A DNA stretch of 64,000 nt from a virus: the UHGV virus genome UHGV-0057186. One strand, 5' to 3'. Every line of letters begins with the position of its first letter. The stretch's first letter is position 1. The notes under the pieces were generated by a model that was not told where the DNA came from, did not search any database, and saw only the letters and a list, made by a program, of their open reading frames with translations. Below are positions 13,883-49,202 of this stretch, in pieces. The position numbers and the translations under genes were made by a program.

Positions 13883-13986
13883 TTAAGTCATTTATCGTTG
13901 GTTCATTATATACTGTTTCTTCATCAGTGTAAACCGGTTCTTCCGGCTCTGGCTCTACAGTTTCCCATCTAGCCGCCCACCAAGGT

Positions 13987-14635: not shown

Positions 14636-14636
14636 A

Positions 14637-14879: not shown

Positions 14880-14881
14880 TT

Positions 14882-15250: not shown

Positions 15251-16173
15251 TTCAGTACCTCAATAGCATCACGTAAACCATTTGCTTTGGCGGTTAAAGC
15301 CTTAATAACTTTAGTATGCTCTTCAATCTGTTTTTCAACTTCAATCAAACGGGCACTGAGATATTCGCGTTCTTCTTTCATAGTATCATTCCCATGATTG
15401 GGCTTTGGCGTAGGTTTAAATTTATTAGGGTCCTTTAACTTAATAACAACTTTAGTTTCAAACAGTGAAAGACCATAATTCGTATTATCATCAAAGGATT
15501 CAACTACGTCCATTTTAGACAATAACGTACGAAGATTATAAGTCAAAGAACGAATCGTTTTATTATGTTTATTAGCTTCACATGGTTTCATATATGGAAG
15601 ATTTTTATATATTTCATGCGGAGCACAAACAATAATTGACAATTCAAATGGTCCATTCTGTGATGATGGAATGAATTTAGCCGTAACCCAATCTTTTACA
15701 TTTACATTAATAGTACGATCATCGCCATGACAAAACAGTCTACGAGAATGCTTAAAAAGCATATTCACATTATTATTAAATTCGTGTGAAAACTCACTGG
15801 CAAATTTTTCTTTACTATTTTTAGAAAACCATTCTTCTAAATAAGTTCTTTTCACGTCGTTAATAATATTAAATGTAACAACATTAGCATTTGATACATT
15901 AGTCTCAATGTAGCTTGGATACATAAATTTTTTAACATTATTAACAGCTATCACAGAAGATAGTAATCGGGAACGTTTGAACCACTCGAGCAAAGAACCA
16001 AGAGAATGTGAATACGCATTTTGTGTATCTTTACAAATATGGTTTTCCCATCCAATATAGTCTAAAAAATCACGAAGAATATTATTGATTACTGCTCTGT
16101 GTCCGATCTGATAATTACGATGTTTAGTAATAAGACCATCAAAATAATCAATATAATGTTTACGAGTTTTCAT
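15247..16173 (-). CDS. Hypothetical protein with C-terminal coiled-coil tail
   Basis: 308-aa ORF; see paralog-array finding. Confidence 0.55.
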   Translation of the reverse strand: MKTRKHYIDYFDGLITKHRNYQIGHRAVINNILRDFLDYIGWENHICKDTQNAYSHSLGSLLEWFKRSRLLSSVIAVNNVKKFMYPSYIETNVSNANVVTFNIINDVKRTYLEEWFSKNSKEKFASEFSHEFNNNVNMLFKHSRRLFCHGDDRTINVNVKDWVTAKFIPSSQNGPFELSIIVCAPHEIYKNLPYMKPCEANKHNKTIRSLTYNLRTLLSKMDVVESFDDNTNYGLSLFETKVVIKLKDPNKFKPTPKPNHGNDTMKEEREYLSARLIEVEKQIEEHTKVIKALTAKANGLRDAIEVLK

Positions 16174-16225
16174 GTTCTTCTCACTTGGTTAATGGTTTAT
16201 ACTCCGAGCCATCCTTGGCTTTAAA

Positions 16226-17227
16226 TTACTTAATTAACTGTAAAGCTTGTTCAAGACGATCCAGGCGATTAACAGATTCTTCCCAAATCCTTTTAGCTTG
16301 CTCATATTCTTTCTGTGCTTTATTAGAAATTTCTAGAACTTCTTTATAAGCTTTTTCTAGTGCAATAACTTCTGGACGAATTTCTACTGGTTCAGGCGAA
16401 TCGTCAAGACATTCCATTAGTTCCTCAAGGGTAGTTTCTTCTTTAGGAGTATTCACAATTTCATCACATTTTTGTTGGTAAATTTCTTTATCAGTCGGTG
16501 AGTACGCACACTTTACTTCACGGAGACTAACTACAATTTTATATCCTTCCCAACCGCATATATTCTTAAAAGGATAAGTATGAATATTTTCTACTGTTTC
16601 CATACAAAGTAATGCGGTCTCTAACTGACGAGTTATATCGCTAGCAATTGAGAAAAATTTATTAATGTTCTTTTGATTAGCTTCTGGTGTAAAAAATTCA
16701 TAATTCACAAAAATAGCTGCTTTATTTTTATCAAGCTCATATTCTTTTATGATAATCATATCAGAAGCCCAAGGATGGATTTGACGATAATCACCATAGC
16801 ATAATTTAGAAGCTGATTTTAGAATTTGCTTCTTGAAAAGTCTAAAATTACTAATCCAACGACGAGTAAAAATATTCTCAGGGTCTTCTTTATTATTAAG
16901 ATGATAAGAATTAACATCACCGAACCAACTGTATCCTACTACATCTTTAGTTCGTTTAATTTCTTTCCCAAATTTACCAAGAATATCTTGATTAACTAAA
17001 TATGAAAGAAGACGAGAACCTTTAAAAGTTTCCTTAATATCATCTTTATATTCGCGACTAGAAATTTTATGAACTTCATGAATAAATTTGCTTGAAGAAA
17101 CAATACTTGCATCAATATTATTGAGCCATTGATTGATAATGGAAATAACACTATTCTGACTAAACACAGGTTTAACTTTATCATCAATAACGCTATTGAA
17201 TGATTTGATATATTCGTTACGAGTCAT
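16226..17227 (-). CDS. Hypothetical protein with C-terminal coiled-coil tail (start refined to ATG 17227, MTRNEYIK)
   Basis: ORF track start 17278 lies upstream of the promoter -10; ATG 17227 has gaggag RBS. Confidence 0.55.
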   Translation of the reverse strand: MTRNEYIKSFNSVIDDKVKPVFSQNSVISIINQWLNNIDASIVSSSKFIHEVHKISSREYKDDIKETFKGSRLLSYLVNQDILGKFGKEIKRTKDVVGYSWFGDVNSYHLNNKEDPENIFTRRWISNFRLFKKQILKSASKLCYGDYRQIHPWASDMIIIKEYELDKNKAAIFVNYEFFTPEANQKNINKFFSIASDITRQLETALLCMETVENIHTYPFKNICGWEGYKIVVSLREVKCAYSPTDKEIYQQKCDEIVNTPKEETTLEELMECLDDSPEPVEIRPEVIALEKAYKEVLEISNKAQKEYEQAKRIWEESVNRLDRLEQALQLIK

Positions 17228-17256
17228 ATTAATCTCCTCAGTAGAAAGTAAGAACA

Positions 17257-17285
17257 TTATACCACATCCTTGTGGCAAAGTAAAC
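17257..17285 (-). promoter_or_regulatory. T4-type early promoter (GTTTAC ... TGG-TATAAT)
   Basis: Minus strand GTTTACTTTGCCACAAGGATGTGGTATAATG. Confidence 0.6.
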
Positions 17286-18304
17286 TAGTTTAGTGCATTT
17301 AGTGCATTGTTCAGTTTAGAACGTTGCTTCGTAAGATTTTTGACTTTTTCTTGAGCTTTTTCTAGCATCTTTTCAGCTTCTAACACTTCATTAGTTGCTT
17401 TAACGAGTTCATCATCTACTGCCTTGATAGACTTCTCAATCGCATCCGCGTGCCATTTTTCAACAGGTTTAAAACTCGGATTTTCAACAGGAAGAAAATT
17501 CACTTTATTGAATTTCCATGTATCTTTATTACCTGAACTATACATCCAAAATTTAGGATCGTTTGATGAGTAATTGGATAAATTTAAGATATCTTGCACT
17601 TCCTGCTTTTTCTCTTGCGGGACTTCGTCCTTTCTCAAAAAATCGTATTTAAATGAAACGATCATATCAAGTTCATACGTTGTTGTATGTTCCCAATTTC
17701 GCTCAAAATGAGGTAAAATCTTAGACTGAACCGCGGCAACTACATCCATATACTTAAATGCTTCTGTCAACTGTGATTTAAGGCATTCACAAATTGAAAG
17801 AGAATTTTTTGTATTAGGTTTAAAGCTAATTCGTGCAGTTCTGTTATTTTCTTTTAATGGTCTTACTTCCATCTGAAGAGTATAACCATCAAATTTCAGA
17901 TTCTTTAAGTTAATATCAGAACCTTTTAATCGACTAGCCGTCGACAAAATTTGCTTTAATTGTTTACGGAATAGAGCAATAAATCTCCACTCAATACGAT
18001 AATGATTTGGATTGAAAAATCCAGATGATAAATCGACCTTACTCTGACCAACACCTTGAACAAATAGAGGATTTTTATAATCAATAGTTTTACAGAAATC
18101 AGTGAGCTGCTCACGAGCAGTCATTTGTGTAATATACCCCGCTTTACTAAAATGACGTAATAATTCACTGCTATTTAGATATTTAAAGTGAATAGCACGA
18201 TTAACTTTATCAGGGTCTAAATTATTTTCACACAAAAATGTCATAACATTACGAGTATCGCTGCCAGTACGAACCATATCTTCAATTTGAGAACGAGTTT
18301 TCAT
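17285..18304 (-). CDS. Hypothetical protein with C-terminal coiled-coil tail
   Basis: 339-aa ORF. Confidence 0.55.
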   Translation of the reverse strand: MKTRSQIEDMVRTGSDTRNVMTFLCENNLDPDKVNRAIHFKYLNSSELLRHFSKAGYITQMTAREQLTDFCKTIDYKNPLFVQGVGQSKVDLSSGFFNPNHYRIEWRFIALFRKQLKQILSTASRLKGSDINLKNLKFDGYTLQMEVRPLKENNRTARISFKPNTKNSLSICECLKSQLTEAFKYMDVVAAVQSKILPHFERNWEHTTTYELDMIVSFKYDFLRKDEVPQEKKQEVQDILNLSNYSSNDPKFWMYSSGNKDTWKFNKVNFLPVENPSFKPVEKWHADAIEKSIKAVDDELVKATNEVLEAEKMLEKAQEKVKNLTKQRSKLNNALNALN

Positions 18305-18312
18305 GGTGTTCC

Positions 18313-19215
18313 TTAAGATTTAAGTAAATCAACAATTTTAATTAACTTTTCACGCTCAGATTTAGCTTTACTACTCAGTCCAGATAGTCTGAAAATTTCA
18401 TCATCATATTGTTGAATAGAAATATTCAGCTCTTCAATCTGTTTATTAAAATAATCAATTTGTTCAGAATGTTTTTCGTTACTACGAACTGGTACAGGTT
18501 TTGTAGGCAATTTAGTTGAACTGGATTCATCCGGGCGATAAATTAAAACACAACTTGAACCAATAGGGCATTTTGCACCAGATGAATATTCTAATGTTCC
18601 AGCTTCTTTTAAAACTTCAAAAGCTAAACAGAGATGATGCCCCATATTAACATAATCTGTAGAGTGAGCTCTGATATAATAATCATCGCCACGAATACTA
18701 AATTTAAAGCATTTAAGGTCTTCTGTATTATTGGTCTTAAAAATCATTTGTTTATCTAGACCTTTAGCTAATCGAGCGCCTAATGCTAATAATCGTCGTT
18801 GATTTTCCCACAAATCTGCGATCATTTGGTCAAATGATAATTTCGGCATTAGTCGACCATAAAGGTCATATCCTTTATTATAATTGCGAAGGATTTCACT
18901 CGCATTAATACGAGACAACGCTCCAATTTTATTAAGGGCTTTCATGATGCGATTAGATAAACCCATTCCAGATCCGTTTGTTCGTTGCAAATGTTTATCT
19001 AATCCAAACCCAATATCAACTTTAAATTTATCTAAAATTTCAGCATGAACATCTCTGTCAATAACATTCAAATCCAAAGTTGGGTTAAATCTATGAAAAA
19101 ATTTATCTGGCTCTCCACGACGAAGTACAGTCCATTCATTTAATTTTTTATTAACTAAAGATTTAATTACTGCATTGACATTATTAATTACTACTGACAT
19201 ATTTTTCTCACTCAA
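18313..19215 (-). CDS. Hypothetical protein with C-terminal coiled-coil tail
   Basis: 300-aa ORF. Confidence 0.55.
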   Translation of the reverse strand: MSEKNMSVVINNVNAVIKSLVNKKLNEWTVLRRGEPDKFFHRFNPTLDLNVIDRDVHAEILDKFKVDIGFGLDKHLQRTNGSGMGLSNRIMKALNKIGALSRINASEILRNYNKGYDLYGRLMPKLSFDQMIADLWENQRRLLALGARLAKGLDKQMIFKTNNTEDLKCFKFSIRGDDYYIRAHSTDYVNMGHHLCLAFEVLKEAGTLEYSSGAKCPIGSSCVLIYRPDESSSTKLPTKPVPVRSNEKHSEQIDYFNKQIEELNISIQQYDDEIFRLSGLSSKAKSEREKLIKIVDLLKS

Positions 19216-19616
19216 TTTTCAATTTTACTAAATACACAGAATATGATGGAAAAGACTATATAAGCACCGAATACAGATTGAACTAATACCATTCCAAAGA
19301 ACCAAACAATATTATCAAACAATGTCTGTTTTACGTCGAAAGGACGTAAACTTACAGTAATATTATCACCTTTTTCTATTGAAGAATACATCTCTGGGGA
19401 AATATATTCACTAAATCTATAACCGTCTTTGAGTTCATATACAGCAATAAACGATAAACTAGACCCCTTTCCTTGAGTTCCTGTAAAGGTATTAACTACA
19501 GTAACATCATAATCTTTATAATGCATATAATCATTAATAGCATAATAACCATATGCAACTACTACACATAAACAACATATCAATAAATTCAATCTTTTAA
19601 TTATCAACTGTTTCAT
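19212..19616 (-). CDS. Membrane protein (N- and C-terminal hydrophobic helices)
   Basis: 134-aa ORF; LLICCLCVVVAYGYYAI and FFGMVLVQSVFGAYIVFSIIFCVF segments. Confidence 0.5.
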   Translation of the reverse strand: MKQLIIKRLNLLICCLCVVVAYGYYAINDYMHYKDYDVTVVNTFTGTQGKGSSLSFIAVYELKDGYRFSEYISPEMYSSIEKGDNITVSLRPFDVKQTLFDNIVWFFGMVLVQSVFGAYIVFSIIFCVFSKIEN

Positions 19617-19645
19617 AATAATCTCAATTAAAAGGGCTTAGAACC

Positions 19646-19669
19646 ATTATACCATCCTTGGTATAAAGC
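19646..19669 (-). promoter_or_regulatory. Candidate MotA-dependent middle promoter (GCTTTA box 12 bp upstream of TATAAT)
   Basis: Minus strand ccGCTTTAtaccaaggatggTATAATgg; spacing fits T4 middle-promoter architecture. Confidence 0.4.
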
Positions 19670-19671
19670 GG

Positions 19672-20199
19672 TTATGCGAGTACCGTCTTTAACCGTTCTT
19701 CAAACTTCCGAAGAGTATTTTGGCGTTCAGCTCTTTGCTTTTTGTAAGTTTCAATACGCTCTGAAATGAGAGTGTATCGTTCATTTACTGATTCTTTCAT
19801 AAAATCAGGAATTTCATGAGAAGCTTTAATCTCGTCAAATTTATCAATAACTGCTTGCTCTTCAGCAATTAAGTTATCATACATCAAAATATCTTTCTTG
19901 ATGAACTCAATATCTTCTTGAGTTACACGAGATAATTTAGATGCTTTATCCTTTTTGTACTGTTCGTTAGTATCACGAGACCAGTGTAATGTACGATTTT
20001 TATTCGTATTCTTGTAAATTTCTACAATACCAATCTCATCGATAATAACGATCCAATTCCAACGAGATTTGTAAATTTGTCCTCCGTCAACCGTGATTTC
20101 ACCTCCGATTGAGATGTCATTAAAGAACTTGCTTTGTGCTTCAGATTTAAATTTACCATCGTTGTAATTTACCAGGTTGAAAATATCTTTAGCGTTCAT
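19672..20199 (-). CDS. Hypothetical protein
   Basis: 175-aa ORF with ggagga RBS. Confidence 0.55.
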   Translation of the reverse strand: MNAKDIFNLVNYNDGKFKSEAQSKFFNDISIGGEITVDGGQIYKSRWNWIVIIDEIGIVEIYKNTNKNRTLHWSRDTNEQYKKDKASKLSRVTQEDIEFIKKDILMYDNLIAEEQAVIDKFDEIKASHEIPDFMKESVNERYTLISERIETYKKQRAERQNTLRKFEERLKTVLA

Positions 20200-20227
20200 T
20201 TTGTGTTCCTCCGTAGTTGATAGTTGT

Positions 20228-20256
20228 ATAGTACCACAGAGGAACAGTCTTGTAAA
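20228..20256 (-). promoter_or_regulatory. T4-type early promoter (GTTTACA...TGG-TACTAT-ACAACTATCAAC)
   Basis: Conserved -35/extended -10/start-region family shared with >10 other sites in window. Confidence 0.6.
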
Positions 20257-20259
20257 CCA

Positions 20260-20574
20260 CTAAAAGAAACTTCTTTCACAATTTTTTCCACTGAACCACG
20301 CGCTCACTGCTTTCTTAGTCTCAGGAGCAGTGTTATCCATAAACCATTCAAAGGCAGCCTTTTTATGATTCTGGAGGGCTTCTCGGGCTTTAATCTGCTC
20401 ACGGTCTATTAACACTAACATATGAGCCTTTCTTGTCACCATGGGCTTCTTATGATTTTTTGAATATTCCCAATCATTTGTCCATCGCATCGTTGTTGCG
20501 AATTGAAGTACAGCTTCTTTAATTTTAGTTTCGTAAATTTCACGAGCCTTTGAGTATAACATCATTACCTCCAT
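20260..20574 (-). CDS. Hypothetical protein
   Basis: 104-aa ORF. Confidence 0.5.
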   Translation of the reverse strand: MEVMMLYSKAREIYETKIKEAVLQFATTMRWTNDWEYSKNHKKPMVTRKAHMLVLIDREQIKAREALQNHKKAAFEWFMDNTAPETKKAVSAWFSGKNCERSFF

Positions 20575-20663
20575 TCACCAGTTTAATTCTAGTCATCTTT
20601 TTGATGGCAGTCCATATAATCTATTTCTGAACTGCCTTTTTGTCATAGAAGTCCTCTTATGAA

Positions 20664-21632
20664 TTATTTCAGAAGAGTAACCTCAGCGATTTCTTCCCAA
20701 CCGTTTTTGTCGGTCATAATAAAGTCAGCAAGATAAAGAGCAGTACGCAGTGAAACATTGCGTAAACGATTAACATTGACTTTCATCCATGATAATGCTT
20801 TATAAGTTTCTTCATCAGAAAGACCGCGTTTTTGCATCATGTCAGTTGAAAGAATAACATCTTCAACCCTGACCATAATTTCTTCATTAGTGTGAACACC
20901 CAAATCTAAATAAACTGAGCGGGACACTAATGCTTGTAAATGTGGAGCAAGTTTAGTACCACGGTCTAATTCGCGGTCAATGTCAACGTTTGTGATAAAA
21001 ACAATCGTTCCTTTAAATTCAAACTCACGCTCAATGCCTTTTTCTTCTAAGTAAGAAGACGCAGTACTCCAGCAGACTTTACGGGTCTCTCCAGTGTCCA
21101 GAGCGGCTTTTAGAAGATTAAGAATGTCCATATCAGAGAAAACATCCACATCATCAATCAAAAGGACAGAATTCTCTTCACGATTATTCCAAAGCTGCTC
21201 ATAAAGACCAATACCAGAGATTTTACCATTAATGCTTTTATATTCAATGTATCCAATATCATTTGCTTTATTTAAAGCTTTATCTAAAGAATACGTTTTA
21301 CCAATACCTGCTGCGCCAGAGATAATTAATGAACGAATATTTCCATTAATAATACCATTCGTCATCATTCCCATAACATTAAATCTTTTATTAATGCGGG
21401 TTTTCATATCTTCATACGATTCTTTAACTTCTTCAACTTTTACACCATCATATGAAATGTCTGATTTGTAAACCCAAACACCGCGACGTTTACCGTCAAT
21501 TTCAACAAAAACTTTACCATCTCCTTGTGCATCTACCGGAGCATTATCTGGGAACCATTCGCCTAAAAGCTCAAAAGTTCCAGAGATTTCTTTACCGAAG
21601 TAGATACCCTTATTGATAGTTACAGTTTTCAT
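20664..21632 (-). CDS. P-loop ATPase (Walker A GAAGIGKT, Walker B VLLIDDVD)
   Basis: 322-aa ORF with both NTP-binding motifs. Confidence 0.6.
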   Translation of the reverse strand: MKTVTINKGIYFGKEISGTFELLGEWFPDNAPVDAQGDGKVFVEIDGKRRGVWVYKSDISYDGVKVEEVKESYEDMKTRINKRFNVMGMMTNGIINGNIRSLIISGAAGIGKTYSLDKALNKANDIGYIEYKSINGKISGIGLYEQLWNNREENSVLLIDDVDVFSDMDILNLLKAALDTGETRKVCWSTASSYLEEKGIEREFEFKGTIVFITNVDIDRELDRGTKLAPHLQALVSRSVYLDLGVHTNEEIMVRVEDVILSTDMMQKRGLSDEETYKALSWMKVNVNRLRNVSLRTALYLADFIMTDKNGWEEIAEVTLLK

Positions 21633-21659
21633 TTTATTCTCCTTTGATTTGATAGGACT

Positions 21660-21688
21660 ACTATAACATAGTCCTATCAGTTTGTATA
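21660..21688 (-). promoter_or_regulatory. Early promoter, weaker -35 (TG-T-TATAGT extended -10, CTATCAAA start region)
   Basis: Minus strand ...actatgTTATAGTagtcctatcaaa. Confidence 0.4.
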
Positions 21689-21689
21689 C

Positions 21690-21890
21690 TTATTTTGACA
21701 TTTCTTCGATGTCACGACGATACCCGTCACGAACTTCACGAAGAGCTTCAAGGCCACACATAGGCTCGATACCAGTAATGTGAACTTGATTAATCTGATA
21801 CTCTACATCTTCTAACTGAGCGAAAACATAACGACGTTCAGCTGCACAACCAGATTTAGCTTTACCGAAACGTTTATTCAAAGTAGTCAT
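21690..21890 (-). CDS. Hypothetical small protein
   Basis: 66-aa ORF with ggag RBS. Confidence 0.45.
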   Translation of the reverse strand: MTTLNKRFGKAKSGCAAERRYVFAQLEDVEYQINQVHITGIEPMCGLEALREVRDGYRRDIEEMSK

Positions 21891-21928
21891 TTTGTATCTC
21901 CAATTTACTCATTTGTTTTGATAGGTCT

Positions 21929-21957
21929 ATAGTATCAACAACTACAGACCATGTAAA
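21929..21957 (-). promoter_or_regulatory. T4-type early promoter
   Basis: Minus strand GTTTACATGGTCTGTAGTTGTTGATACTATAGACCTATCAAAA. Confidence 0.6.
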
Positions 21958-21961
21958 CAAT

Positions 21962-22225
21962 TTATTTTAATTTTCGCCAAATTTTTACTGCTTCTCGCCT
22001 CGATACTTCTACGGCGCCAAGTTCTATAGCTTTTTGACGACGACTTGCACGTAAGTCATAATGTTTAATGCGTTTATCTTGAAACCAAGAACGTTTCATT
22101 CCTATTGCTTCTGCCATTTCGTGAAGCTCTTCAATATCTCCATCAGTGAACATATGACAATTTTTAGTTGGATGACCGCGAAGTTTCCATCCATGATTCA
22201 TTAAAACATCTACGTAAACTGTCAT
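21962..22225 (-). CDS. Hypothetical basic protein
   Basis: 87-aa ORF. Confidence 0.5.
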   Translation of the reverse strand: MTVYVDVLMNHGWKLRGHPTKNCHMFTDGDIEELHEMAEAIGMKRSWFQDKRIKHYDLRASRRQKAIELGAVEVSRREAVKIWRKLK

Positions 22226-30163: not shown

Positions 30164-30625
30164 TCATTGAGTTTTAATTACTGCTTTAGAAGCCTTTCCT
30201 GGTAAACGACGACTGTTAATAATTGCCATCCTACATTGAAGTGACGGGTCTTTGAACTTCGCGTTAGGTTTACAAACTGTAAATCCAAGCCAAAGATTTC
30301 CATCTGTGATTTCTAAACGTCCAGGACGATATTCAACCCCATCAATAAAATCCTCGTCAATGTCAGGGCGCGGAGGCATACTCAGGAATTCATTAACTTC
30401 TAAAACATGGTCTTTTATTTTATGGAATAATTCAAAAACATATGTCTCGTCAATCTCCCGTTGAATTGCACGATCAAGAAGATGCTGAGAATATTTTAGA
30501 TGAAACGATGAGACCCCTGCTGCTTTTGATGCCTCACGAATCTCATTGTTAATTTGACGAAACTCCGACTCAAAGTGACGACGAAGCTTATTTCGACGGA
30601 TAAAAACTTCTGTATTGATAGTCAT
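30164..30625 (-). CDS. regB: Endoribonuclease RegB
   Basis: 153-aa ORF with RBS aagaggag; length/position as T4 RegB; early promoter immediately upstream. Confidence 0.8.
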   Translation of the reverse strand: MTINTEVFIRRNKLRRHFESEFRQINNEIREASKAAGVSSFHLKYSQHLLDRAIQREIDETYVFELFHKIKDHVLEVNEFLSMPPRPDIDEDFIDGVEYRPGRLEITDGNLWLGFTVCKPNAKFKDPSLQCRMAIINSRRLPGKASKAVIKTQ

Positions 30626-30652
30626 GTTATTCTCCTCTTAACTGATAGAAAA

Positions 30653-30682
30653 ATTATACCACAGTCAAGAGGAAAAGTAAAC
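30653..30682 (-). promoter_or_regulatory. T4-type early promoter of regB
   Basis: Minus strand GTTTACTTTTCCTCTTGACTGTGGTATAATTTTTCTATCAG. Confidence 0.65.
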
Positions 30683-30684
30683 AG

Positions 30685-30963
30685 TTATTCTTTAAATCTA
30701 ATCAATTTATTCATAGACTTTGAAACTTCTGCACGAACCTCATGTAGATTTTTGAGCTGTTCAAGACGCTGCTCATAGTAAGCAATTTCATCTTCTTCGA
30801 GACAGTCCTGTGAATCTTCTTTAAGATAACGTGCATAGTCCTGGAAAGCGTTACGAACTACTTCCTGGAAGTCATCAAGACTTTGAATTTTCTTAGGAGC
30901 AACAGATACACGACGAGGGGCAGTATAATACTCATAACCAAACCCTGCGCTTAATTGAGCCAT
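30685..30963 (-). CDS. Hypothetical protein (vs.3 position; start refined to ATG 30963)
   Basis: TAATG overlap with upstream gene stop. Confidence 0.45.
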
Positions 30964-31229
30964 TAATATTTTTCCTCTGGTTGGAACACAGCACGACAAG
31001 CCCACATACTGGCTTCTTTGAGTTTCGTTTTAGCAATAGTTAACTGATCGAGGCTTTCGGCGTAATTCTTCGCGAGTTCATCATCTTCACAGCTATCAAA
31101 TGCTTCCCAAAATTCATCGTATAAAGCATCAAAGATAAGTCCTAAACGAACTTCAGCGTCTTTAATAGCATTTACTTTACCGATTTTTTCGTCGGTATGT
31201 GGCTTATAACCTTTAATATCTTCAATCAT
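30963..31229 (-). CDS. Candidate Acb2-like cyclic-oligonucleotide sponge (vs.4 position)
   Basis: 88 aa from ATG 31229 (RBS gaggaag): [44 protein letters not shown]...; second gene after regB as vs.4 is in T4; assignment from memory of T4 Vs.4. Confidence 0.45.
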
Positions 31230-31443
31230 ATTTGACTTCCTCACCAGTACATAAATCGTATTCAACTAAACGAATAGGTTCATGAATGCCATATCCTTGA
31301 ACAGAAATTTCTGTAGTAGGATAAATTCCATTAATATCACCCATGTTCCATGCTTCGTTAAATTGCTGTTCGCCTGAATTACTAAACCATTCGGCGAAAG
31401 CATTTAGCACATCTTTAGAACCTTCAATAATTATCTTTGCCAT
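31222..31443 (-). CDS. Hypothetical small protein
   Basis: 73-aa ORF, stop overlaps downstream start. Confidence 0.45.
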   Translation of the reverse strand: MAKIIIEGSKDVLNAFAEWFSNSGEQQFNEAWNMGDINGIYPTTEISVQGYGIHEPIRLVEYDLCTGEEVKYD

Positions 31444-31805
31444 TACAAACTCTCAGTAAAGGTACGAGCGATAACGTCGCGCTGCTGTTCCGGAGTCAGA
31501 GAGTTAAAGCGAACTGCATAACCGGATACACGGATGGTCAGCTGCGGATATTTTTCCGGATGCTTAACTGCATCTTCCAGAGTTTCACGACGCAGAACGT
31601 TAACGTTCAGGTGTTGACCACCTTCAATTTTAACTGTAGGCTGTTGCTCAATTTCAATTTCACGGGCATGCAAACCGTAGAAAATTTCTGGGTCTACAAA
31701 AGAGTCCTCTTTAAAGGTTTTAGAGACAATAATTCGTGCTTGAATACCATCTTCAAAATAAATAGTACCTTTATGTGTGCCTTCAAGAATTTGATATGCT
31801 TTCAT
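31443..31805 (-). CDS. Autonomous glycyl-radical cofactor-like protein (GrcA/YfiD-like)
   Basis: 120 aa; C-terminal [25 protein letters not shown] glycyl-radical motif of the PFL family. Confidence 0.65.
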
Positions 31806-31812
31806 ATAAACC

Positions 31813-32193
31813 TCAATTAGAAAATAAATTTATCCAAGATTGTTCTTTAATTAAAAATGGCTCAGAATCATATGCCATTAAACTCTGTGTGATTAGTCCT
31901 TTAAAAGGCCCATCAATAAATTCCATGGTAAAATATGGAATTTTATTCATTAGCCGTGCATTAGGAGCAGTACACAAAACTCTGCATCCTTTGAATACGC
32001 CTTTTTGTAATTTGTATTGCTTAGGATAAAATTCGCTCAAGACGTTGTTATTTGCCAAAATTTCAAAATGATTCACCAATTTATTTTTAATAGTTTTTGG
32101 CGAAAAATAAAGATATTCGAAAAGCTGAGTGTCTGTCATCATTGCATTCCGATTACGAAAAACTGTGGACGAGTAATACCACCAATGCAACAT
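31813..32193 (-). CDS. Hypothetical protein
   Basis: 126-aa ORF; start probably internal. Confidence 0.4.
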
Positions 32194-32726
32194 TTAATAT
32201 TACAGCAGCAGTGTACAGTGTCAATATGGACACTATAAATCTTATCCATATCAGGAGATTTGACAGGCTCATCAATTATATACAAAATTCGCGAAAGCGA
32301 TAAACCTCTGAACTTGCTTCCTTTATTACCGATAAAACTGCGCACAGAATCAGTAAATAAACGAAAACGTATATCATCGCTAGAATAACGAGAAAATTCC
32401 TTTTTAATGTTATTTGCAGAAATTTTAGCGTAAGCTGAAGTATTAGAAAGAACAATAACTGTTCCGCCATCATACAACCAATTAGCAGCAAAGTTAGTCA
32501 CAGCAATTGATTTACCAGATTGACGTCCACCATCTAGTCGAAGTGTGCAGTACTGTTTAAGTAATTCTTCAAATGGCGGGATATAATCGTTTTTACAAAT
32601 TTCTTCTACTCTAGCATCAGAATGGTGTGTAAAAGCATTCATCAGGGATAGATAAGGACCAGTTAAAAATGTTCTCATTTTATTCTCTCTAAATTTGGGC
32701 CATTCCATGGCGCATGAATTGTCCAT
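32139..32726 (-). CDS. P-loop NTPase-like protein
   Basis: 195 aa; GGRQSGKS Walker A-like and LYIIDEP Walker B-like. Confidence 0.45.
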   Translation of the reverse strand: MDNSCAMEWPKFRENKMRTFLTGPYLSLMNAFTHHSDARVEEICKNDYIPPFEELLKQYCTLRLDGGRQSGKSIAVTNFAANWLYDGGTVIVLSNTSAYAKISANNIKKEFSRYSSDDIRFRLFTDSVRSFIGNKGSKFRGLSLSRILYIIDEPVKSPDMDKIYSVHIDTVHCCCNIKCCIGGITRPQFFVIGMQ

Positions 32727-32831
32727 TTCTGTATTTACCCATTACCGCACTTGGGCTCGACCTTATTACAGGTTGGCGGGAATCCCTCATAGAATCATGA
32801 GGTCCAGCTTGTTCCCATATTTCTTATTTGC

Positions 32832-33305
32832 TTATTTGAATGATTTGACGTACTGAATAGAACCTTTACTATTCACGAAAGCGATTTTACCATTTTTATT
32901 ATACATGGTAGCAGTACGCTGATAGCCATAAGTTTGTTTACCAGATTGATAACCAACTAATGCGAAATTATCTTCACCCATTTTATTCTGTTTAGCGCGA
33001 ATACGTTCATGACCGTGTGCCATAAGAACCTTAGCATCACCAGTTGAAATTGATCTACGAGTTTTTTCATCTTCAACTGTATTAACAAAGTCGTCAAATG
33101 AATCAAATTTAGCATGGGATTTATTATACAGTTTTCCATCTACTGCATAATTATATCCCTGTACATCCATCTCAACTTCTGTACCATCATCCAATACAGC
33201 AGTAATTTTTTGACCTTTTTTAAATTTCAAAAGATCAGTAAAAGATTCAGCAATAATTTGAGAATTAATAGCTGCTTCAGTGATAAATTCTTGATATGTT
33301 TTCAT
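32832..33305 (-). CDS. Internal (capsid-targeted) protein, 157 aa
   Basis: N-terminus MKTYQEFITEA is the T4 capsid-targeting sequence with LxE prohead-protease site. Confidence 0.65.
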   Translation of the reverse strand: MKTYQEFITEAAINSQIIAESFTDLLKFKKGQKITAVLDDGTEVEMDVQGYNYAVDGKLYNKSHAKFDSFDDFVNTVEDEKTRRSISTGDAKVLMAHGHERIRAKQNKMGEDNFALVGYQSGKQTYGYQRTATMYNKNGKIAFVNSKGSIQYVKSFK

Positions 33306-33361
33306 ATGTTTCCTTTAAATGTAAATATTTTTGCCGTAATACTTGTACCAGTGTGGCTTCA

Positions 33362-33730
33362 TTAAAATTTTTCATCGAGTCGTTGTTGACTCAATTTAAT
33401 AGCTGATTTGCATGGATTATAATCATTTTTCCATTCTGCTGGAATATCGCTGATGTCAGGAACTTCAGTATCTTTTATACTAAACCCACGTTTTAAGCAT
33501 TCCGTTATAATGTCTGATTGACGCTTTCGCAAAAATTCTAACTTATCGTAAAAGAACGTAACATGACCAGAGCCTAAAATAAACTCGGAAGATATTTTAA
33601 AATCTTTAACCCGCTTACCATTTGCCACATGTTTACGAACTATACCAAAAACACGCGGCAATTCACGATACTCAGCCATAAGATGTTGGTCGGTCAGTTC
33701 AGAAACAAGTGTTAAATTGATACGAGTCAT
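33362..33730 (-). CDS. denV: Endonuclease V (pyrimidine-dimer DNA glycosylase), C-terminus lost by apparent -1 frameshift
   Basis: [29 protein letters not shown]... from ATG 33730 (RBS ggagga); ends ...QQRLDEKF*, while [15 protein letters not shown] is in the +1 frame at 33315..33362. Confidence 0.8.
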
Positions 33731-40330: not shown

Positions 40331-40407
40331 TTGGCCAGGGTGAAAGGATTCTAACCTTTAACCTGCGGTTTAGAGGACCGCTACTCTATACAATTGAGTT
40401 ACACCCC
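40331..40407 (-). tRNA. tRNA-Arg (anticodon UCU)
   Basis: Hand-folded: acceptor CGGGGTG/CACCCTG, anticodon stem GCGGT/ACCGC loop CCTCTAA, T-arm AAAGG-TTAGAAT-CCTTT, encoded CCA. Confidence 0.7.
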
Positions 40408-40533
40408 GTAATTAGTTCACAGCAATACCTACTCCAACAATCAAGATGTCTTCACACGAAATTAAGAGAAGAGTGATCAGTTTAACCCCTATAATCGCGT
40501 CAAGTGATATTAATGTGACAACTGTCACAAGTT

Positions 40534-40608
40534 TGGCGGACGTGATAGGATTCGAACCTATAACAAATCGCTTAACAGGCGATCGCTCTGCCATTGAGCT
40601 ACACATCC
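40534..40608 (-). tRNA. tRNA-Asn (anticodon GUU)
   Basis: Acceptor GGATGTG/CACGTCC, D-arm GCTC-AATGGCA-GAGC, anticodon loop CTGTTAA, T-arm ATAGG-TTCGAAT-CCTAT, CCA encoded. Confidence 0.7.
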
Positions 40609-40612
40609 AAAT

Positions 40613-40699
40613 TGGTGGGGAGTGATGGAGTCGAACCACCCGAGTCGCAATGACAATGGATTTACAGTCCACACCGCTACCTCTACGGGATAACTCCCC
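40613..40699 (-). tRNA. tRNA-Tyr (anticodon GUA), class II with long variable arm
   Basis: Acceptor GGGGAGT/ACTCCCC perfect, anticodon loop CTGTAAA, T-arm GGTGG-TTCGACT-CCATC, CCA encoded. Confidence 0.65.
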
Positions 40700-40708
40700 A
40701 AATTAATT

Positions 40709-40783
40709 TGGTGGCCCTGGGTGGAATTGAACCACCATCTGGCGATTATGAGTCGCTTGCTTGAACCTTCCAGCTACAGGGCC
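40709..40783 (-). tRNA. tRNA with CAU anticodon (Ile2-lysidine type or Met)
   Basis: Acceptor GGCCCTG/CAGGGCC, anticodon loop CTCATAA, T-arm GGTGG-TTCAATT-CCACC, CCA encoded. Confidence 0.7.
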
Positions 40784-40784
40784 T

Positions 40785-40860
40785 TGGTGCTGATTGACGG
40801 AATCGAACCGCCGACCTTCTCATTACAAGTGAGTTGCTCTACCTACTGAGCTAAATCAGC
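40785..40860 (-). tRNA. tRNA-Thr (anticodon UGU)
   Basis: Acceptor GCTGATT/AATCAGC, D-arm GCTC-AGTAGGTA-GAGC, anticodon loop CTTGTAA, T-arm GGCGG-TTCGATT-CCGTC. Confidence 0.75.
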
Positions 40861-40865
40861 AAAAC

Positions 40866-40955
40866 TGGCGGAGGCGATAGGATTTGAACCTATGAGTCGC
40901 CGGAGCGACTGCCGGTTTTCAAGACCGGTGCATTAAACCACTCTGCCACGCCTCC
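40866..40955 (-). tRNA. tRNA-Ser (anticodon UGA), class II
   Basis: Acceptor GGAGGCG/CGCCTCC, anticodon stem CCGGT/ACCGG loop CTTGAAA, long variable arm, T-arm ATAGG-TTCAAAT-CCTAT. Confidence 0.75.
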
Positions 40956-40957
40956 AG

Positions 40958-41031
40958 TCTCCATACAAGGATTTGAACCTTGGACCTCCTGATCCCAAAT
41001 CAGGCGCTCTACCAAACTGAGCTACACGGAG
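40958..41031 (-). tRNA. tRNA-Pro (anticodon UGG)
   Basis: Acceptor CTCCGTG/TATGGAG, D-arm AGCTCAGTTTGGTAGAGC, anticodon loop TTTGGGA, T-arm CAAGG-TTCAAAT-CCTTG; abuts tRNA-Ser with 2-nt spacer. Confidence 0.7.
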
Positions 41032-41041
41032 TAAATTAAAT

Positions 41042-41115
<74 letters not shown>

Positions 41116-41120
41116 AAATT

Positions 41121-41207
41121 TGGTGCGAGAAGTGGGACTCGAACCCACAAGGAAATCATTCCGCAGCATTTTAAGTGCTGTGCCTTTACCAATTTGACCA
41201 TTCTCGC
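41121..41207 (-). tRNA. tRNA-Leu (anticodon UAA), class II
   Basis: Acceptor GCGAGAA/TTCTCGC, anticodon stem CAGCA/TGCTG loop CTTAAAA, T-arm GTGGG-TTCGAGT-CCCAC. Confidence 0.75.
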
Positions 41208-41208
41208 G

Positions 41209-41281
41209 CTGGGAATAAAGGACTCGAACCTTTGCATCCTGGAATCAAAATCCAGTGCCTTACCAACTTGGCTAATTCCCA
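41209..41281 (-). tRNA. tRNA-Gln (anticodon UUG)
   Basis: Acceptor TGGGAAT/ATTCCCA, anticodon stem CTGGA/TCCAG loop TTTTGAT, T-arm AAAGG-TTCGAGT-CCTTT; abuts tRNA-Leu with 1-nt spacer. Confidence 0.75.
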
Positions 41282-43454: not shown

Positions 43455-44164
<710 letters not shown>

Positions 44165-44165
<1 letters not shown>

Positions 44166-44890
44166 TATAGTACCTTTAGTGTATTTTTAATTTTAGAAAA
44201 AAGTTCTTCAAGAGAACCATCGTTTGTAATTACTAAATCGCCATCACGAATTGGCAATCCAGCTTCTGTAATATGTGTATCATTGGATTTTTGACCAGGA
44301 CGAACTACATGAATTACTGTAGCACCCATCGCCCTAGCCGCATCCATTTCATGATCTTGACGGGTATCAGGAACGATATAATAATCATAACCTGAGTTAA
44401 ATTTATCAAGATAATCTAAAGCAAATAATTTTACCCAGTACATGCGGTCGAAGTTATTAACAATCAAATCCGTACCTAGGGCTTGCATCAGACGACGGAC
44501 TGACCATTGATCTTCAATATTATTTATAACGTCAGTAATTTTGTTAAATGCTACGAAATTAACTGATTCTTTTCCTTCGTCGTCAAAAACAAACACGCCT
44601 TTAATCGGGCTTTTACTATTAAGATAGCAAAATGCTTGTTCCATAATCATAATTACTTCTAATTTAGTCAAATTCAAATTAGTCTCACGATCATAGTCAA
44701 TTCCTTCAAACTCTTTACGAGTTAAGCAAGGATAATCATTGTTTGCAGCAAATACACCCCATGCATAAGCCAATGCATCCTTAATAGGACCAGCAAGTTG
44801 ATATTTAACTGCAGAATAATTATTCATGATAAAATCTGCAGTAGTATCTTTTCCACTACGCTTTACACCACTTAAAAAGATTAGTTTCAT
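44165..44890 (-). CDS. 1: dNMP (hmdCMP/dTMP/dGMP) kinase gp1
   Basis: 241 aa; P-loop GVKRSGKDT; length as T4 gp1. Confidence 0.88.
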
Positions 44891-44939
44891 GTGTTTCTCC
44901 TCAAATTTAGTTAAGATTATAACACATGAAACTGAAGCA

Positions 44940-45470
44940 TTAAACTTCTGCTATAATTTTGCCATCTTTTTCTACTTGAAAATACGTATAAGGAATCGTT
45001 GCTGTGCATACTAAAGCCGGGTCTGAATCTTCCGTGTAGCTAAATTCTACTTCAGACAGGTCAGAAACCCAGGGCTTATAAAAATTTATTGACATCACGA
45101 TTTCAGTTTTACTATTATCTAAAATGTAAAGCGTAATGTATTCAGGACCTGTTTTTTGGGCAGTATTTTCGCCTGTAAGATAGTTACTAGTTCCTAACAT
45201 CCATTCATACATTCCTATCCACGACTTAAGTTCTTCATCAACTATAAATCTCACAATGAGTGGATCATACTCAAATGTAACACCTGGACGTTGTGCTCGA
45301 CCCAGGCCAAATGGCCCAGTCACGGTATCAGTAACAGGTATCCTAATTCCTGGAATAGGAACTGACTGAGCATTTAAAGTAAAAGCAGATGTAGTATTAC
45401 TATGCGGTATTGATACTACAAAGTTAGTTGTATTTGCTTGGTTAAAAATTTGTTGCAGTGCTTGCGACAT
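44940..45470 (-). CDS. 3: Tail sheath stabiliser/tail tube terminator gp3 (start refined to ATG 45470)
   Basis: 176 aa from ATG with gaggaa RBS; position between 1 and 2. Confidence 0.75.
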   Translation of the reverse strand: MSQALQQIFNQANTTNFVVSIPHSNTTSAFTLNAQSVPIPGIRIPVTDTVTGPFGLGRAQRPGVTFEYDPLIVRFIVDEELKSWIGMYEWMLGTSNYLTGENTAQKTGPEYITLYILDNSKTEIVMSINFYKPWVSDLSEVEFSYTEDSDPALVCTATIPYTYFQVEKDGKIIAEV

Positions 45471-45576
45471 ATATTCCTCATAATGCTTTATAAATGTTGG
45501 TGGTATAATGGGTCTAAGTCCCTTCCATTCAATTCCAATTAGAACAAACAATAGAAAAGAATGGAAGATAATAGAA

Positions 45577-46401
45577 TTAGATATTTGACCAGACTTTGTT
45601 TGCAGAGAAACGTTTTCCTTTTGAAACGAACTGCTGAAGTGGCATTAACACAACGTTCGCCCAGTCTTTCGGGGCGATTTCAACAAGGCTACCCATAATA
45701 TTACCGGGGATATATGCCTTAATCATTTGGTCTGCACCCCTAAATCCTTTCACTTGACTCCAATCAATTTTTAATTTCGTTTTATTAGTAATAGTAGGTG
45801 TATTTGAATATTGCTTTAAAAGCTCTTCTAGGAATTGCTGGCGAGCTTTAGGTGGAATATAGTGCAAGTTCAATCCGTACATTAAATTATGCTTACCTAA
45901 ACCAAGGTAAATTATTAAAGGAAATTTATCCCAGTAAGGAAGAGTTTCCTTGTGTTTAGCATCATAAGCAAAAGCATATATTCGTCCCGGCTGCGGGCGA
46001 ACAACTTTATGTCCTTTTACTTGCTTAATAGTTTCAGCAAACCACTTTCTGGTTTTATTATTAATTGCTGCACCTTCATTACGAATTTTATCACGCAATG
46101 TTTGTCTGAATGAATTTATCATAAGCAGTTGTCTTTCTTGCTTATTGAGTTTATTCATTGGTTTTGATTCAAGCTTTTGAATCTTTTCAGCCGTTTTAAT
46201 TCCTGAAGCATATTTTGACATTGCTGAAGTAAACGTAGAGTATTTGATTCCTCTTTCTTCAGCAAATTGCTTTCCTGTCATTCCTTTTGCTTTGGCCTTT
46301 TTATATTCAAGACCTATCTGAATCCATTTCTTTTCGTTTAATGATTGCTTAACCTTTGGAACTTGGGGAGTGCTTTCATTAATTATTTGAAAAATAGCCA
46401 T
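45577..46401 (-). CDS. 2: DNA end-protector protein gp2
   Basis: 274-aa basic protein; length/position as T4 gp2; ATGA overlap with gene 4. Confidence 0.8.
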
Positions 46402-46853
46402 TATGCCCCCTTAAAGCCAAGAGCTCGTAATCCATCTTCTGTTAAAATTCTAAATTTTATTCCACGCTTTTCAGCTAAAGATTGTGCTGCTTTCCATTTG
46501 TCGGTGTTAACAGACCAGGTATAAATTTCATTCATAAATCTTTTCTTCGCTGCGGTTGTTAGATGCGCCGGTTTAACTGGTGGTTGTGTTTCTTTTTTAG
46601 GTTTTATTTCAATAAAAAATTCTTGTCCAGAAGAATCTTTCATCCAAATATCCATGAAGTATCTACGTTTTTTCCCTTCTGCATTACAAAAATAAGGAAT
46701 TACTGCTGTTTCACTACCCCATGCAATAATTTCTGGATTTTTATCTAACCATTCAAAAAAGAATTTTTCCCAATTTGATCTATACGTAATTTTTTTAGGG
46801 TCACCTCTATACTTTGATATATTTTTAGGAACCCATTTTCCAGAATATGCCAT
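46401..46853 (-). CDS. 4: Head completion protein gp4
   Basis: 150-aa ORF; length/position as T4 gp4. Confidence 0.8.
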
Positions 46854-46864
46854 TGGATTCTCCT

Positions 46865-46872
46865 TATAAATA
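46865..46872 (+). promoter_or_regulatory. Late promoter TATAAATA for gene 53
   Basis: Exact TATAAATA 29 nt upstream of ATG 46901. Confidence 0.6.
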
Positions 46873-46879
46873 GATAATA

Positions 46880-46887
46880 TATTTATA
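46880..46887 (-). promoter_or_regulatory. Late promoter TATAAATA for gene 4 (divergent)
   Basis: Exact TATAAATA on minus strand upstream of ATG 46853. Confidence 0.55.
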
Positions 46888-46900
46888 AACAGGAGGGCCC

Positions 46901-47491
46901 ATGCTCTTTACATTTTTTGATCCGATTGAATATGCGGCCAAAACGGTGAATAAAAACGCGCCGACTATTCCTATGACAGATATTTTTAGAAACTATAAAG
47001 ACTATTTTAAACGCGCTCTTGCGGGATACCGCTTACGTACTTATTATATCAAAGGTTCACCACGCCCGGAAGAATTAGCAAATACTATATATGGAAATCC
47101 ACAGTTGTATTGGGTTTTATTGATGTGTAATGATAATTATGACCCGTATTATGGATGGATTACTTCACAAGAAGCAGCTTATCAAGCATCTATACAAAAA
47201 TACAAAAATGTAGGTGGAGACCAAATAGTATATCATGTGAATGAGAACGGTGAAAAATTTTATAATTTAATATCATACGATGATAATCCATATGTTTGGT
47301 ATGATAAAGGTGATAAAGCTAGAAAATATCCTCAATATGAAGGAGCACTTGCTGCTGTTAATACGTATGAAGATGCTGTTCTTGAAAATGAAAAACTTCG
47401 TCAAATAAAAATAATAGCAAAATCAGACATTAATTCATTTATGAACGACCTTATACGTATAATGGAGAAATCTTATGGAAATGATAAGTAA
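46901..47491 (+). CDS. 53: Baseplate wedge protein gp53
   Basis: 196 aa; length/position as T4 gp53. Confidence 0.85.
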   Translation: MLFTFFDPIEYAAKTVNKNAPTIPMTDIFRNYKDYFKRALAGYRLRTYYIKGSPRPEELANTIYGNPQLYWVLLMCNDNYDPYYGWITSQEAAYQASIQKYKNVGGDQIVYHVNENGEKFYNLISYDDNPYVWYDKGDKARKYPQYEGALAAVNTYEDAVLENEKLRQIKIIAKSDINSFMNDLIRIMEKSYGNDK

Positions 47492-49202
47492 TAACCTTAA
47501 TTGGTTTGTTGGTGTTGTTGAAGATAGAATGGACCCATTAAAATTAGGTCGTGTTCGTGTTCGTGTGGTTGGTCTGCATCCACCTCAAAGAGCACAAGGC
47601 GATGTAATGGGTATTCCAACTGAAAAATTACCATGGATGTCAGTTATTCAACCTATAACTTCTGCAGCAATGTCTGGAATTGGAGGTTCTGTTACTGGAC
47701 CGGTAGAAGGAACTAGAGTTTATGGTCATTTTTTAGACAAATGGAAAACTAACGGAATTGTCCTTGGCACGTATGGTGGAATAGTTCGCGAAAAACCGAA
47801 TAGACTTGAAGGATTTTCTGACCCAACTGGGCAATATCCTAGACGTTTAGGAAATGATACTAATGTATTAAACCAAGGCGGAGAAGTAGGATATGATTCG
47901 TCTTCTAACATTATCCAAGATAGTAACTTAGACACTGCAATAAATCCCGATGATAGACCACTATCAGAGATTCCAACCGATGATAATCCAAATATGTCAA
48001 TGGCTGAAATGCTTCGCCGTGATGAAGGATTAAGATTAAAAGTTTATTGGGATACCGAAGGATATCCGACAGTTGGTATTGGTCATCTTATCATGAAGCA
48101 GCCAGTTCGTGATATGGCTCAAATTAATAAAGTTTTATCAAAACAAGTTGGTCGTGAAATTACTGGAAACCCAGGTTCTATTACGATGGAAGAGGCGACG
48201 ACTTTATTTGAACGTGATTTGGCTGATATGCAACGGGACATTAAATCACATTCTAAAGTAGGACCAGTCTGGCAAGCTGTCAACCGTTCTCGTCAAATGG
48301 CGTTAGAAAATATGGCATTTCAGATGGGTGTTGGTGGTGTAGCTAAATTTAACACAATGTTAACTGCTATGTTAGCAGGAGATTGGGAAAAAGCGTATAA
48401 AGCCGGTCGTGATTCATTATGGTATCAACAAACAAAAGGCCGTGCATCCCGTGTTACCATGATTATTCTTACGGGAAATTTAGAATCATATGGCGTTGAA
48501 GTGAAAACCCCAGCTAGGTCTCTATCAGCAATGGCTGCTACTGTAGCTAAATCTTCTGACCCTGCTGACCCTCCTATTCCAAATGACTCGAGAATTTTAT
48601 TCAAAGAACCAGTTTCTTCATATAAAGGTGAATATCCTTATGTGCATACAATGGAAACTGAAAGTGGACATATTCAGGAATTTGATGATACCCCTGGGCA
48701 AGAACGATACAGATTAGTTCATCCAACTGGAACTTATGAAGAAGTATCACCGTCAGGAAGAAGAACAAGAAAAACTGTTGATAATTTGTATGATATAACC
48801 AACGCTGATGGTAATTTTTTGGTAGCCGGTGATAAAAAGACTAACGTCGGTGGATCAGAAATTTATTACAACATGGATAATCGTCTTCACCAGATAGATG
48901 GAAGCAATACAATATTTGTACGTGGCGACGAAACGAAAACTGTTGAAGGCAATGGAACTATCCTAGTTAAAGGTAATGTTACTATTGTAGTTGAAGGTAA
49001 TGCTGACATTACAGTTAAAGGAGATGCTACCACTTTAGTTGAAGGAAATCAAACTAACACAGTAAATGGAAATCTTTCTTGGAAAGTTGCTGGGACAGTT
49101 GATTGGGACGTTGGTGGTGATTGGACAGAAAAAATGGCATCTATGAGTTCTATTTCATCTGGTCAATACACAATTGATGGATCGAGGATTGACATTGGCT
49201 AA
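47475..49202 (+). CDS. 5: Baseplate central spike/cell-puncturing protein gp5 with lysozyme domain
   Basis: 575 aa; N-terminal OB-fold region, internal T4L-like lysozyme domain (MAEMLRRDEGLRLKVYWDTEGYPTVGIGHLI), C-terminal beta-helix VxGxxxxx repeats. Confidence 0.93.
   Translation: MEMISNNLNWFVGVVEDRMDPLKLGRVRVRVVGLHPPQRAQGDVMGIPTEKLPWMSVIQPITSAAMSGIGGSVTGPVEGTRVYGHFLDKWKTNGIVLGTYGGIVREKPNRLEGFSDPTGQYPRRLGNDTNVLNQGGEVGYDSSSNIIQDSNLDTAINPDDRPLSEIPTDDNPNMSMAEMLRRDEGLRLKVYWDTEGYPTVGIGHLIMKQPVRDMAQINKVLSKQVGREITGNPGSITMEEATTLFERDLADMQRDIKSHSKVGPVWQAVNRSRQMALENMAFQMGVGGVAKFNTMLTAMLAGDWEKAYKAGRDSLWYQQTKGRASRVTMIILTGNLESYGVEVKTPARSLSAMAATVAKSSDPADPPIPNDSRILFKEPVSSYKGEYPYVHTMETESGHIQEFDDTPGQERYRLVHPTGTYEEVSPSGRRTRKTVDNLYDITNADGNFLVAGDKKTNVGGSEIYYNMDNRLHQIDGSNTIFVRGDETKTVEGNGTILVKGNVTIVVEGNADITVKGDATTLVEGNQTNTVNGNLSWKVAGTVDWDVGGDWTEKMASMSSISSGQYTIDGSRIDIG

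Follow-up and report, generated by a model that had tools for sequence, protein, structure and literature searches.

A short open reading frame in the window (the whole 64-kb stretch of phage DNA analysed here) ends in a glycyl-radical motif. This raises two questions: which enzyme a phage-encoded radical domain might serve, and where the phage obtained it. The gene and its radical site lie as follows.

31443..31805, minus strand: coding sequence of vs.6 (Y06I), 120 amino acids plus stop, ATG start, from the list of open reading frames
31512..31532, minus strand: radical loop RVSGYAV of the pyruvate formate-lyase (PFL) type, codons 92-98, located from the GrcA and PFL alignments
31521..31523, minus strand: GGT codon of Gly95, the predicted radical site (equivalent to GrcA Gly102 and PFL Gly734), from its computed position and the alignments

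An orthologue of T4 vs.6

The open reading frame encodes a phage autonomous glycyl radical cofactor, homologous to GrcA and orthologous to the product of T4 gene vs.6 (Y06I). T4 Vs.6 (UniProt P13316; NP_049730) is equal in length and identical to the window protein at 118 of 120 residues, and the T4 gene (NC_000866, 63557..63919), labelled "autonomous glycyl radical cofactor GrcA" in RefSeq, has ~98.6% nucleotide identity to that of the window. Residue 54 is Q in the window phage and P in T4, while residue 73 is R in the window phage and H in T4; at the latter position E. coli GrcA agrees with the window phage. The source of the window is a T4-like phage (Tequatrovirus). Over the 3.5 kb surrounding the gene, Escherichia phage vB_Eco_EL is 99.9% identical and hundreds of T4-like phages are 97-99% identical, many of them with the gene labelled "autonomous glycyl radical cofactor".

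Pfam Gly_radical matched residues 60-101 (E = 2.5e-18; 67 bits, cutoff 22.2) and phrog_1209 aligned residues 1-120 with positions 1-121 of its 121 (E = 5.7e-63). The best NCBIfam match was TIGR04365, spare_glycyl (E = 1.2e-45). Its score of 154.9 bits lies under the curated equivalog cutoff of 170, owing to an N-terminal half that has diverged and that falls short of its GrcA counterpart by 7 residues. The features of GrcA proteins (TIGR04365, InterPro IPR011140) are present at sequence level, namely a small stand-alone protein, a C-terminal radical domain and the RVSGYAV loop. With phmmer, residues 22-120 aligned with residues 28-127 of the E. coli GrcA structure 6OWR (E = 9.3e-42), and HMMER still aligned phage residues 22-57 with GrcA residues 28-64. 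Residues 58-120 matched the C-terminus of PFL (1H16 and others; E = 5e-26), with 49 of 63 residues identical to PFL 697-759 (78%). The preliminary description had seen in this 120-residue reading frame the glycyl-radical motif of PFL and GrcA, and had proposed alignment with GrcA and with the PFL C-terminus as a check; the matches to Pfam, 6OWR and PFL bear it out. The C-terminal peptide that it quoted corresponds to residues 92-116, after which come TESL and the stop.

The same description had held that its reading would fail if the motif glycine varied among relatives. In an alignment of 14 proteins (11 from phages of at least eight genera and three bacterial GrcAs), a 19-residue stretch that includes Gly95 is invariant, as is a separate stretch of 11 residues, and this condition thus leaves the reading standing.

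The phage protein shares with E. coli GrcA (YfiD) its small, stand-alone nature and its two-part layout of N-terminal binding half and C-terminal radical domain. The last 60 residues, including the radical glycine, are 100% identical, whereas the N-terminal ~59 residues are only weakly similar. The phage protein is expressed from phage early transcripts, whereas expression of host grcA is under host regulation. The C-terminal radical domain of PflB (residues ~693-759; PDB 1H16, 2PFL) has in common with Vs.6 an identical 22-residue core, but Vs.6 has no catalytic barrel and so would work only by docking on damaged PFL. For the C-terminal domain of Vs.6 a matching solved structure already exists, and NMR shows the N-terminal half of GrcA to be disordered. 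A single-sequence AlphaFold2 prediction of Vs.6 gave an unusable model, with a mean pLDDT of 34.8.

Antisense to the whole of vs.6 is a TTG-start reading frame of 127 amino acids (31437..31820, plus strand). It is simply open and most likely a shadow reading frame.

Neighbouring genes and expression signals

The order denV - vs.8 - vs.7 - vs.6 - vs.5 ... regB - vs.1 is conserved relative to the T4 annotation, in which vs.6 likewise has vs.7 upstream and vs.5 downstream with a TAATG overlap. Pfam identified RegB, the SLT-like Vs.1 and DenV, and the assignments of Vs.5, Vs.7 and Vs.8 come from PHROGs. The immediate surroundings of vs.6 are:

31222..31443, minus strand: vs.5 homologue, 73 amino acids, translationally coupled downstream neighbour (phrog_1986, 9.6e-44)
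31811..31814, minus strand: GAGG, Shine-Dalgarno-like by match to the consensus, 5 nt upstream of the vs.6 ATG and overlapping the vs.7 TGA (31813..31815)
31813..32142, minus strand: vs.7 homologue, 109 amino acids from the MMTDTQ start, upstream neighbour in the same direction (phrog_2049, 2.8e-54)

The GAGG is a putative ribosome-binding signal of vs.6. In a scan of 30600..33400 for promoters and terminators, counts did not rise above the level of shuffled controls (for promoter-like sites, 12 where 10.1 were expected). A site upstream of vs.7 (32224..32197, minus strand) matched a promoter at 10 of 12 positions; it was rejected as evidence for a promoter, the scan being no better than shuffled sequence.

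The Vs.8 homologue (32139..32726, minus strand) has a Walker-A-like sequence, GGRQSGKS, and a weak match to phrog_2 (terminase-large-subunit ATPase; 2.1e-5). One deposited phage record has "terminase large subunit" among the features of the 3.5-kb region, a label that may belong to the vs.8 homologue.

Vs.6 as a probable spare part for host pyruvate formate-lyase

The function of this gene is not a discovery, having been known since 2001; the preliminary description had not recognised a gene that already has a name and an experimental record. E. coli YfiD and T4 Y06I are ~14-kDa spare-part proteins found by Knappe and co-workers and, according to PMC8683613 (citing Wagner et al. 2001, pmid 11444864), both receive a radical from PFL-activating enzyme and reactivate oxygen-cleaved PFL in vitro. 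They are the sole two validated spare-part proteins (PMC8683613). In YfiD, the structured part, residues 61-127, is the radical domain, whereas residues 1-60, though disordered, are required to bind cleaved PFL and to install the radical efficiently (PMC8683613). The RNA of T4 vs.6 is early and the protein has been detected during infection (supplement of PMC9697503).

The reading favoured here, at a probability of roughly 0.88, is that vs.6 of the window, as the orthologue of T4 vs.6, encodes a spare part of the GrcA/YfiD type for host PFL. The present analysis shows that the gene is an orthologue, that its motif is intact and that its radical domain has the same amino-acid sequence as that of the host. 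Activation by the PFL activase and rescue of cleaved PFL would carry over from T4 Y06I, given identity at 118 of 120 residues. The preliminary description had likewise suggested a stand-alone GrcA-like spare part able to rescue oxygen-cleaved PFL, which is what PMC8683613 reports for Y06I. We infer what the N-terminal half does, how the phage benefits and why it carries a copy.

On this reading, oxygen would attack the Gly734 radical of host PFL, which would be cleaved there and lose its last 25 residues. The small phage protein would dock on the cleaved enzyme through its N-terminal half, and its C-terminal domain would substitute for the lost radical domain of PFL. The host activase PflA, a radical-SAM enzyme, would then put the radical on phage Gly95, and PFL activity (pyruvate and CoA to acetyl-CoA and formate) would be restored without a new 85-kDa enzyme being made. 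As T4 shuts off host gene expression, host GrcA would probably not be replenished in the micro-oxic gut while infection lasts, and a copy made from phage early transcripts would likely take its place. A repair part for a host fermentation enzyme, carried by a virulent phage, would be an "auxiliary metabolic gene" that suits a gut with fluctuating oxygen. The searchable literature yielded no in-vivo phenotype for a vs.6 mutant.

The N-terminal half, to which the difference from the host protein is confined, is the PFL-binding part in YfiD, so kinetics or target preference could differ from those of the host protein. Since that half governs complex formation in YfiD (PMC8683613), it might instead bind intact or cleaved PFL, or titrate PflA, as a modulator or decoy that re-routes fermentation, for example acetyl-CoA or formate flux. 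The title of Kammel et al. implies that GrcA proteins do more than mend the cleaved enzyme. Such a role is unlikely, as T4 Y06I restored PFL activity in vitro (PMC8683613) and a host-identical catalytic domain is expected under selection for full catalytic competence, not for a dead decoy.

The anaerobic ribonucleotide reductase as an improbable target

A second glycyl-radical system is encoded in the window, and the preliminary description had considered that Vs.6 might conceivably rescue it.

9771..10241, minus strand: nrdG, anaerobic ribonucleotide reductase (RNR) activase (Fer4_12, Radical_SAM)
10238..12055, minus strand: nrdD, anaerobic ribonucleotide reductase (Pfam NRDD, 3.4e-171, plus Gly_radical)

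Vs.6 would then replace the oxygen-cleaved C-terminal radical domain of the phage's own NrdD and be activated by NrdG. The Pfam Gly_radical domain is common to Vs.6 and NrdD, the same phage encodes both NrdD and NrdG, and Aeromonas phage 65 has the gene order nrdG - vs.6 - nrdC. In addition, Nolan et al. (2006, PMC1524935), who found vs.6 kept in six of six T4-like genomes, speculated about a role in nucleotide metabolism. The two proteins themselves argue against this. BLASTP of Vs.6 against NrdD of the window gave a best E of 2.4, with no alignment at the radical loop. The C-terminus of NrdD reads CFTCG...CSICG and then RRTCGYLG, whereas Vs.6 has no cysteine at all, and hence no zinc ribbon, and its loop is RVSGYAV. 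A four-cysteine metal site is a defining feature of NrdD in the structures of that enzyme. The radical domain of Vs.6 is, furthermore, 100% identical to that of host GrcA and 78% identical to that of PFL. The coordinates given earlier for nrdD and nrdG were right, but the two genes do not lie alongside vs.6: they are 19.4 kb away in the window, with many genes between. With no significant similarity to NrdD, no cysteine, a loop of the PFL type and no adjacency of the genes, rescue of NrdD is not supported, and we regard it as very improbable beside the role as a spare part for host PFL.

The phage 65 locus (1..890 of the extracted sequence) was the sole case seen of a spare-part gene beside an anaerobic RNR activase; a shared need in the absence of oxygen could by itself explain this co-location. 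T4 nrdD carries a group I intron, and nrdD of the window is an uninterrupted reading frame of 605 amino acids. Directly upstream, and overlapping the nrdD start, is a reading frame of 273 amino acids (12046..12867, minus strand) with a NUMOD3 motif (5.5e-8), which looks like a free-standing homing-endonuclease-like gene.

The 3' half of vs.6 and E. coli grcA

The DNA of vs.6 divides into parts of different character, which are listed here from the 5' end of the gene.

31628..31805, minus strand: phage-specific 5' half, codons 1-59, GC 0.34, distantly related to the N-terminal half of bacterial GrcA
31453..31627, minus strand: apparently host-derived tract, gene nt 179-353 (~codons 60-118), encoding the structured glycyl-radical domain, delimited by exact-run computation
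31441..31452, minus strand: 3' end of vs.6, with the TAATG stop/start overlap onto vs.5, from the alignment and the coordinates of the reading frames

When vs.6 and E. coli grcA are aligned flush at the stop codon, 175 consecutive nucleotides (vs.6 nt 179-353) are identical. The GC content of the 3' part of the gene is 0.49, which is host-like, against 0.34 in the 5' part. In blastn against 5,426 complete E. coli genomes, gene nt 179-363 alone aligned, to grcA in 5426/5426 genomes, at 97.8-98.4% identity; upstream of nt 179 there was no blastn alignment to E. coli, this part being essentially unalignable as DNA. The best formate-lyase gene among the blastn matches listed was tdcE (~76%), so that the apparent donor of the 3' tract is grcA (98%) and not a full-length formate-lyase gene. 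Over the 3' 183 nt, identity to vs.6 is 180/183 in E. coli, 178/183 in an Escherichia cryptic-clade genome, 167/183 in Citrobacter, 156/183 in a Klebsiella metagenome-assembled genome and 151/183 in Salmonella. E. coli grcA itself diverges equally from that of Salmonella in both halves (0.846 and 0.842), which indicates vertical inheritance in the host and therefore transfer from host to phage.

Megablast of the whole window against the E. coli collection gave no match in 1..22000 or in 44001..64000. The matches listed for the middle third were the grcA tract, present in all the genomes, and a tRNA-Tyr from a single plasmid record; most genomes had a second matching place. Among the matches listed, the grcA tract is the sole segment of the 64-kb window that resembles the E. 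coli chromosome.

This mosaic points to recent gene conversion from host to phage: judging from the sequence comparisons, vs.6 is an old phage gene whose 3' half has recently been overwritten by E. coli grcA. T4 vs.6 is a mosaic with the same E. coli-identical 3' tract. The junction falls where YfiD switches from disordered to structured (structure in PMC8683613): the binding half is still that of the phage, and the radical domain is exactly that of the host. Since the overwritten half comes from E. coli grcA, the radical domain would fit host PFL and PflA exactly.

At the very end of the gene the host sequence is not kept. Gene nt 354, 357 and 358 differ synonymously from E. coli grcA (GAG AGT TTG in place of GAA AGC CTG), and these three changes create a GAGAG purine run ahead of the overlapping vs.5 start. 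Service as the vs.5 ribosome-binding site would be a plausible reason for the departure from the host sequence there.

We propose, tentatively and as something possible rather than probable, that vs.6 of the T4/RB69 type is a chimera whose radical half was overwritten recently, perhaps repeatedly, by recombination with chromosomal grcA, and that this is so far apparently undescribed. No description of the host-identical tract was found in the searchable literature; key older papers outside that search may have noted it. If the proposal is true, a strictly virulent phage with hydroxymethylcytosine DNA evolves in concert with its host in such a way that the spare part keeps its exact fit to PFL and PflA. 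Such a case of DNA flow from host to T-even phage would be rare and datable, and the sharp mosaic junction would be a clean natural marker for measuring recombination between them. The tract has a practical side as well. The gene, as grcA, has been proposed as a PCR/qPCR marker for Straboviridae (PMC12845203, 2026). As 31443..31627 is ~98% identical to chromosomal grcA in each of the 5,426 E. coli genomes, any marker in this stretch, for PCR or for read mapping, would cross-react with the host, whose DNA the primers would amplify.

Distribution and age of the tract

By tblastn, vs.6 was found in 1589 phage records, mostly of Straboviridae that infect Escherichia, Klebsiella, Salmonella, Enterobacter, Yersinia and Aeromonas, together with T5-like Demerecviridae. 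The homologues of phrog_1209 (Mosigvirus, Jiaodavirus, Karamvirus, Krischvirus, T4-like phages of Aeromonas and T5-like Demerecviridae) have the same architecture and the invariant radical loop. Among the phage genera compared, the E. coli-identical tract is limited to Tequatrovirus and Mosigvirus. In the distant genera (Karamvirus, Krischvirus, the Aeromonas phages and the T5-like phages) the homologues are full-length, the GC of their 3' part is phage-like, and their DNA identity to the sampled hosts is 70-81%; in Karamvirus, Aeromonas phage 65 and the T5-like phages, the 3' halves have a GC content of 0.34-0.43 and are 70-78% identical to sampled bacterial grcA. The existence of full-length homologues with phage-like GC in distant genera indicates that the gene is old in phages and that the E. 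coli tract is a later overwrite.

Exact identity over 175 nt with E. coli grcA and a host-like GC are also what would be seen if the 3' half were a recent host fragment, passively carried and of no selected function, or a chimera of assembly or cloning. This is the least probable of the explanations considered. The tract is in frame, and the phage 5' half to which it is joined, at the homologous position, aligns with GrcA as well. Hundreds of Tequatrovirus and Mosigvirus genomes, sequenced independently, share these junctions and show synonymous changes specific to their lineages, and the more distant phages have the full-length homologues with phage-like GC just described. The protein is, moreover, expressed in T4 (supplement of PMC9697503). 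These observations favour an overwritten phage gene.

Whether the overwriting took place once or more often can be approached through Mosigvirus. Phages ATK47, JK42, FP43 and WFK share the tract and its junctions and are identical to E. coli at 175-177 of 183 positions; their 5' halves are 88-91% identical to that of the window, and the flanking genes 45-90%. In the phage collection, 175 records have the 5' part at 80-95% identity and three have the 3' part at 90-95%. Synonymous differences between the window phage and the Mosigvirus or Mosigvirus-like phages number 2-5 in the 58 codons of the tract and 10-12 in the 59 codons of the 5' half (Fisher's exact P between 0.003 and 0.085 for the different phages). 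The smaller number in the tract is suggestive of repeated conversion. The shared junctions argue for one conversion event and subsequent spread among phages.

A GC-rich 3' half is also seen in Klebsiella phage KPN6 (Jiaodavirus; gene at 301..663 of the extracted locus), where its GC content is 0.56 and that of the 5' half is 0.37. Its identity to bacterial grcA does not exceed 87%, in a sample that did not include grcA of K. pneumoniae, and it could be an older or Klebsiella-derived host tract. A metagenome scan with a 35-mer from this GC-rich half gave no match.

In the T5-like phages Tennessee and NBEco001 (301..669 of each extracted locus), a homologue of 122 amino acids adjoins tRNA genes. 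Its C-terminus, ALTREQQNDVISRTFTQAM, is nearer to that of PFL than to that of GrcA, and the T5-like homologue may have been captured independently, with pflB and not grcA as its source.

The window has its own cluster of ten tRNA genes (40332..41281, minus strand), for Arg, Asn, Tyr, Met/Ile (cat), Thr, Ser, Pro, Gly, Leu and Gln. T4 carries eight tRNAs, and the two extra in the window are those for Asn and Tyr. The tRNA-Tyr region accounts for the other megablast match listed in the E. coli collection, a tRNA-Tyr at 90.5% identity on a plasmid record of 101 kb (NZ_CP077546.1).
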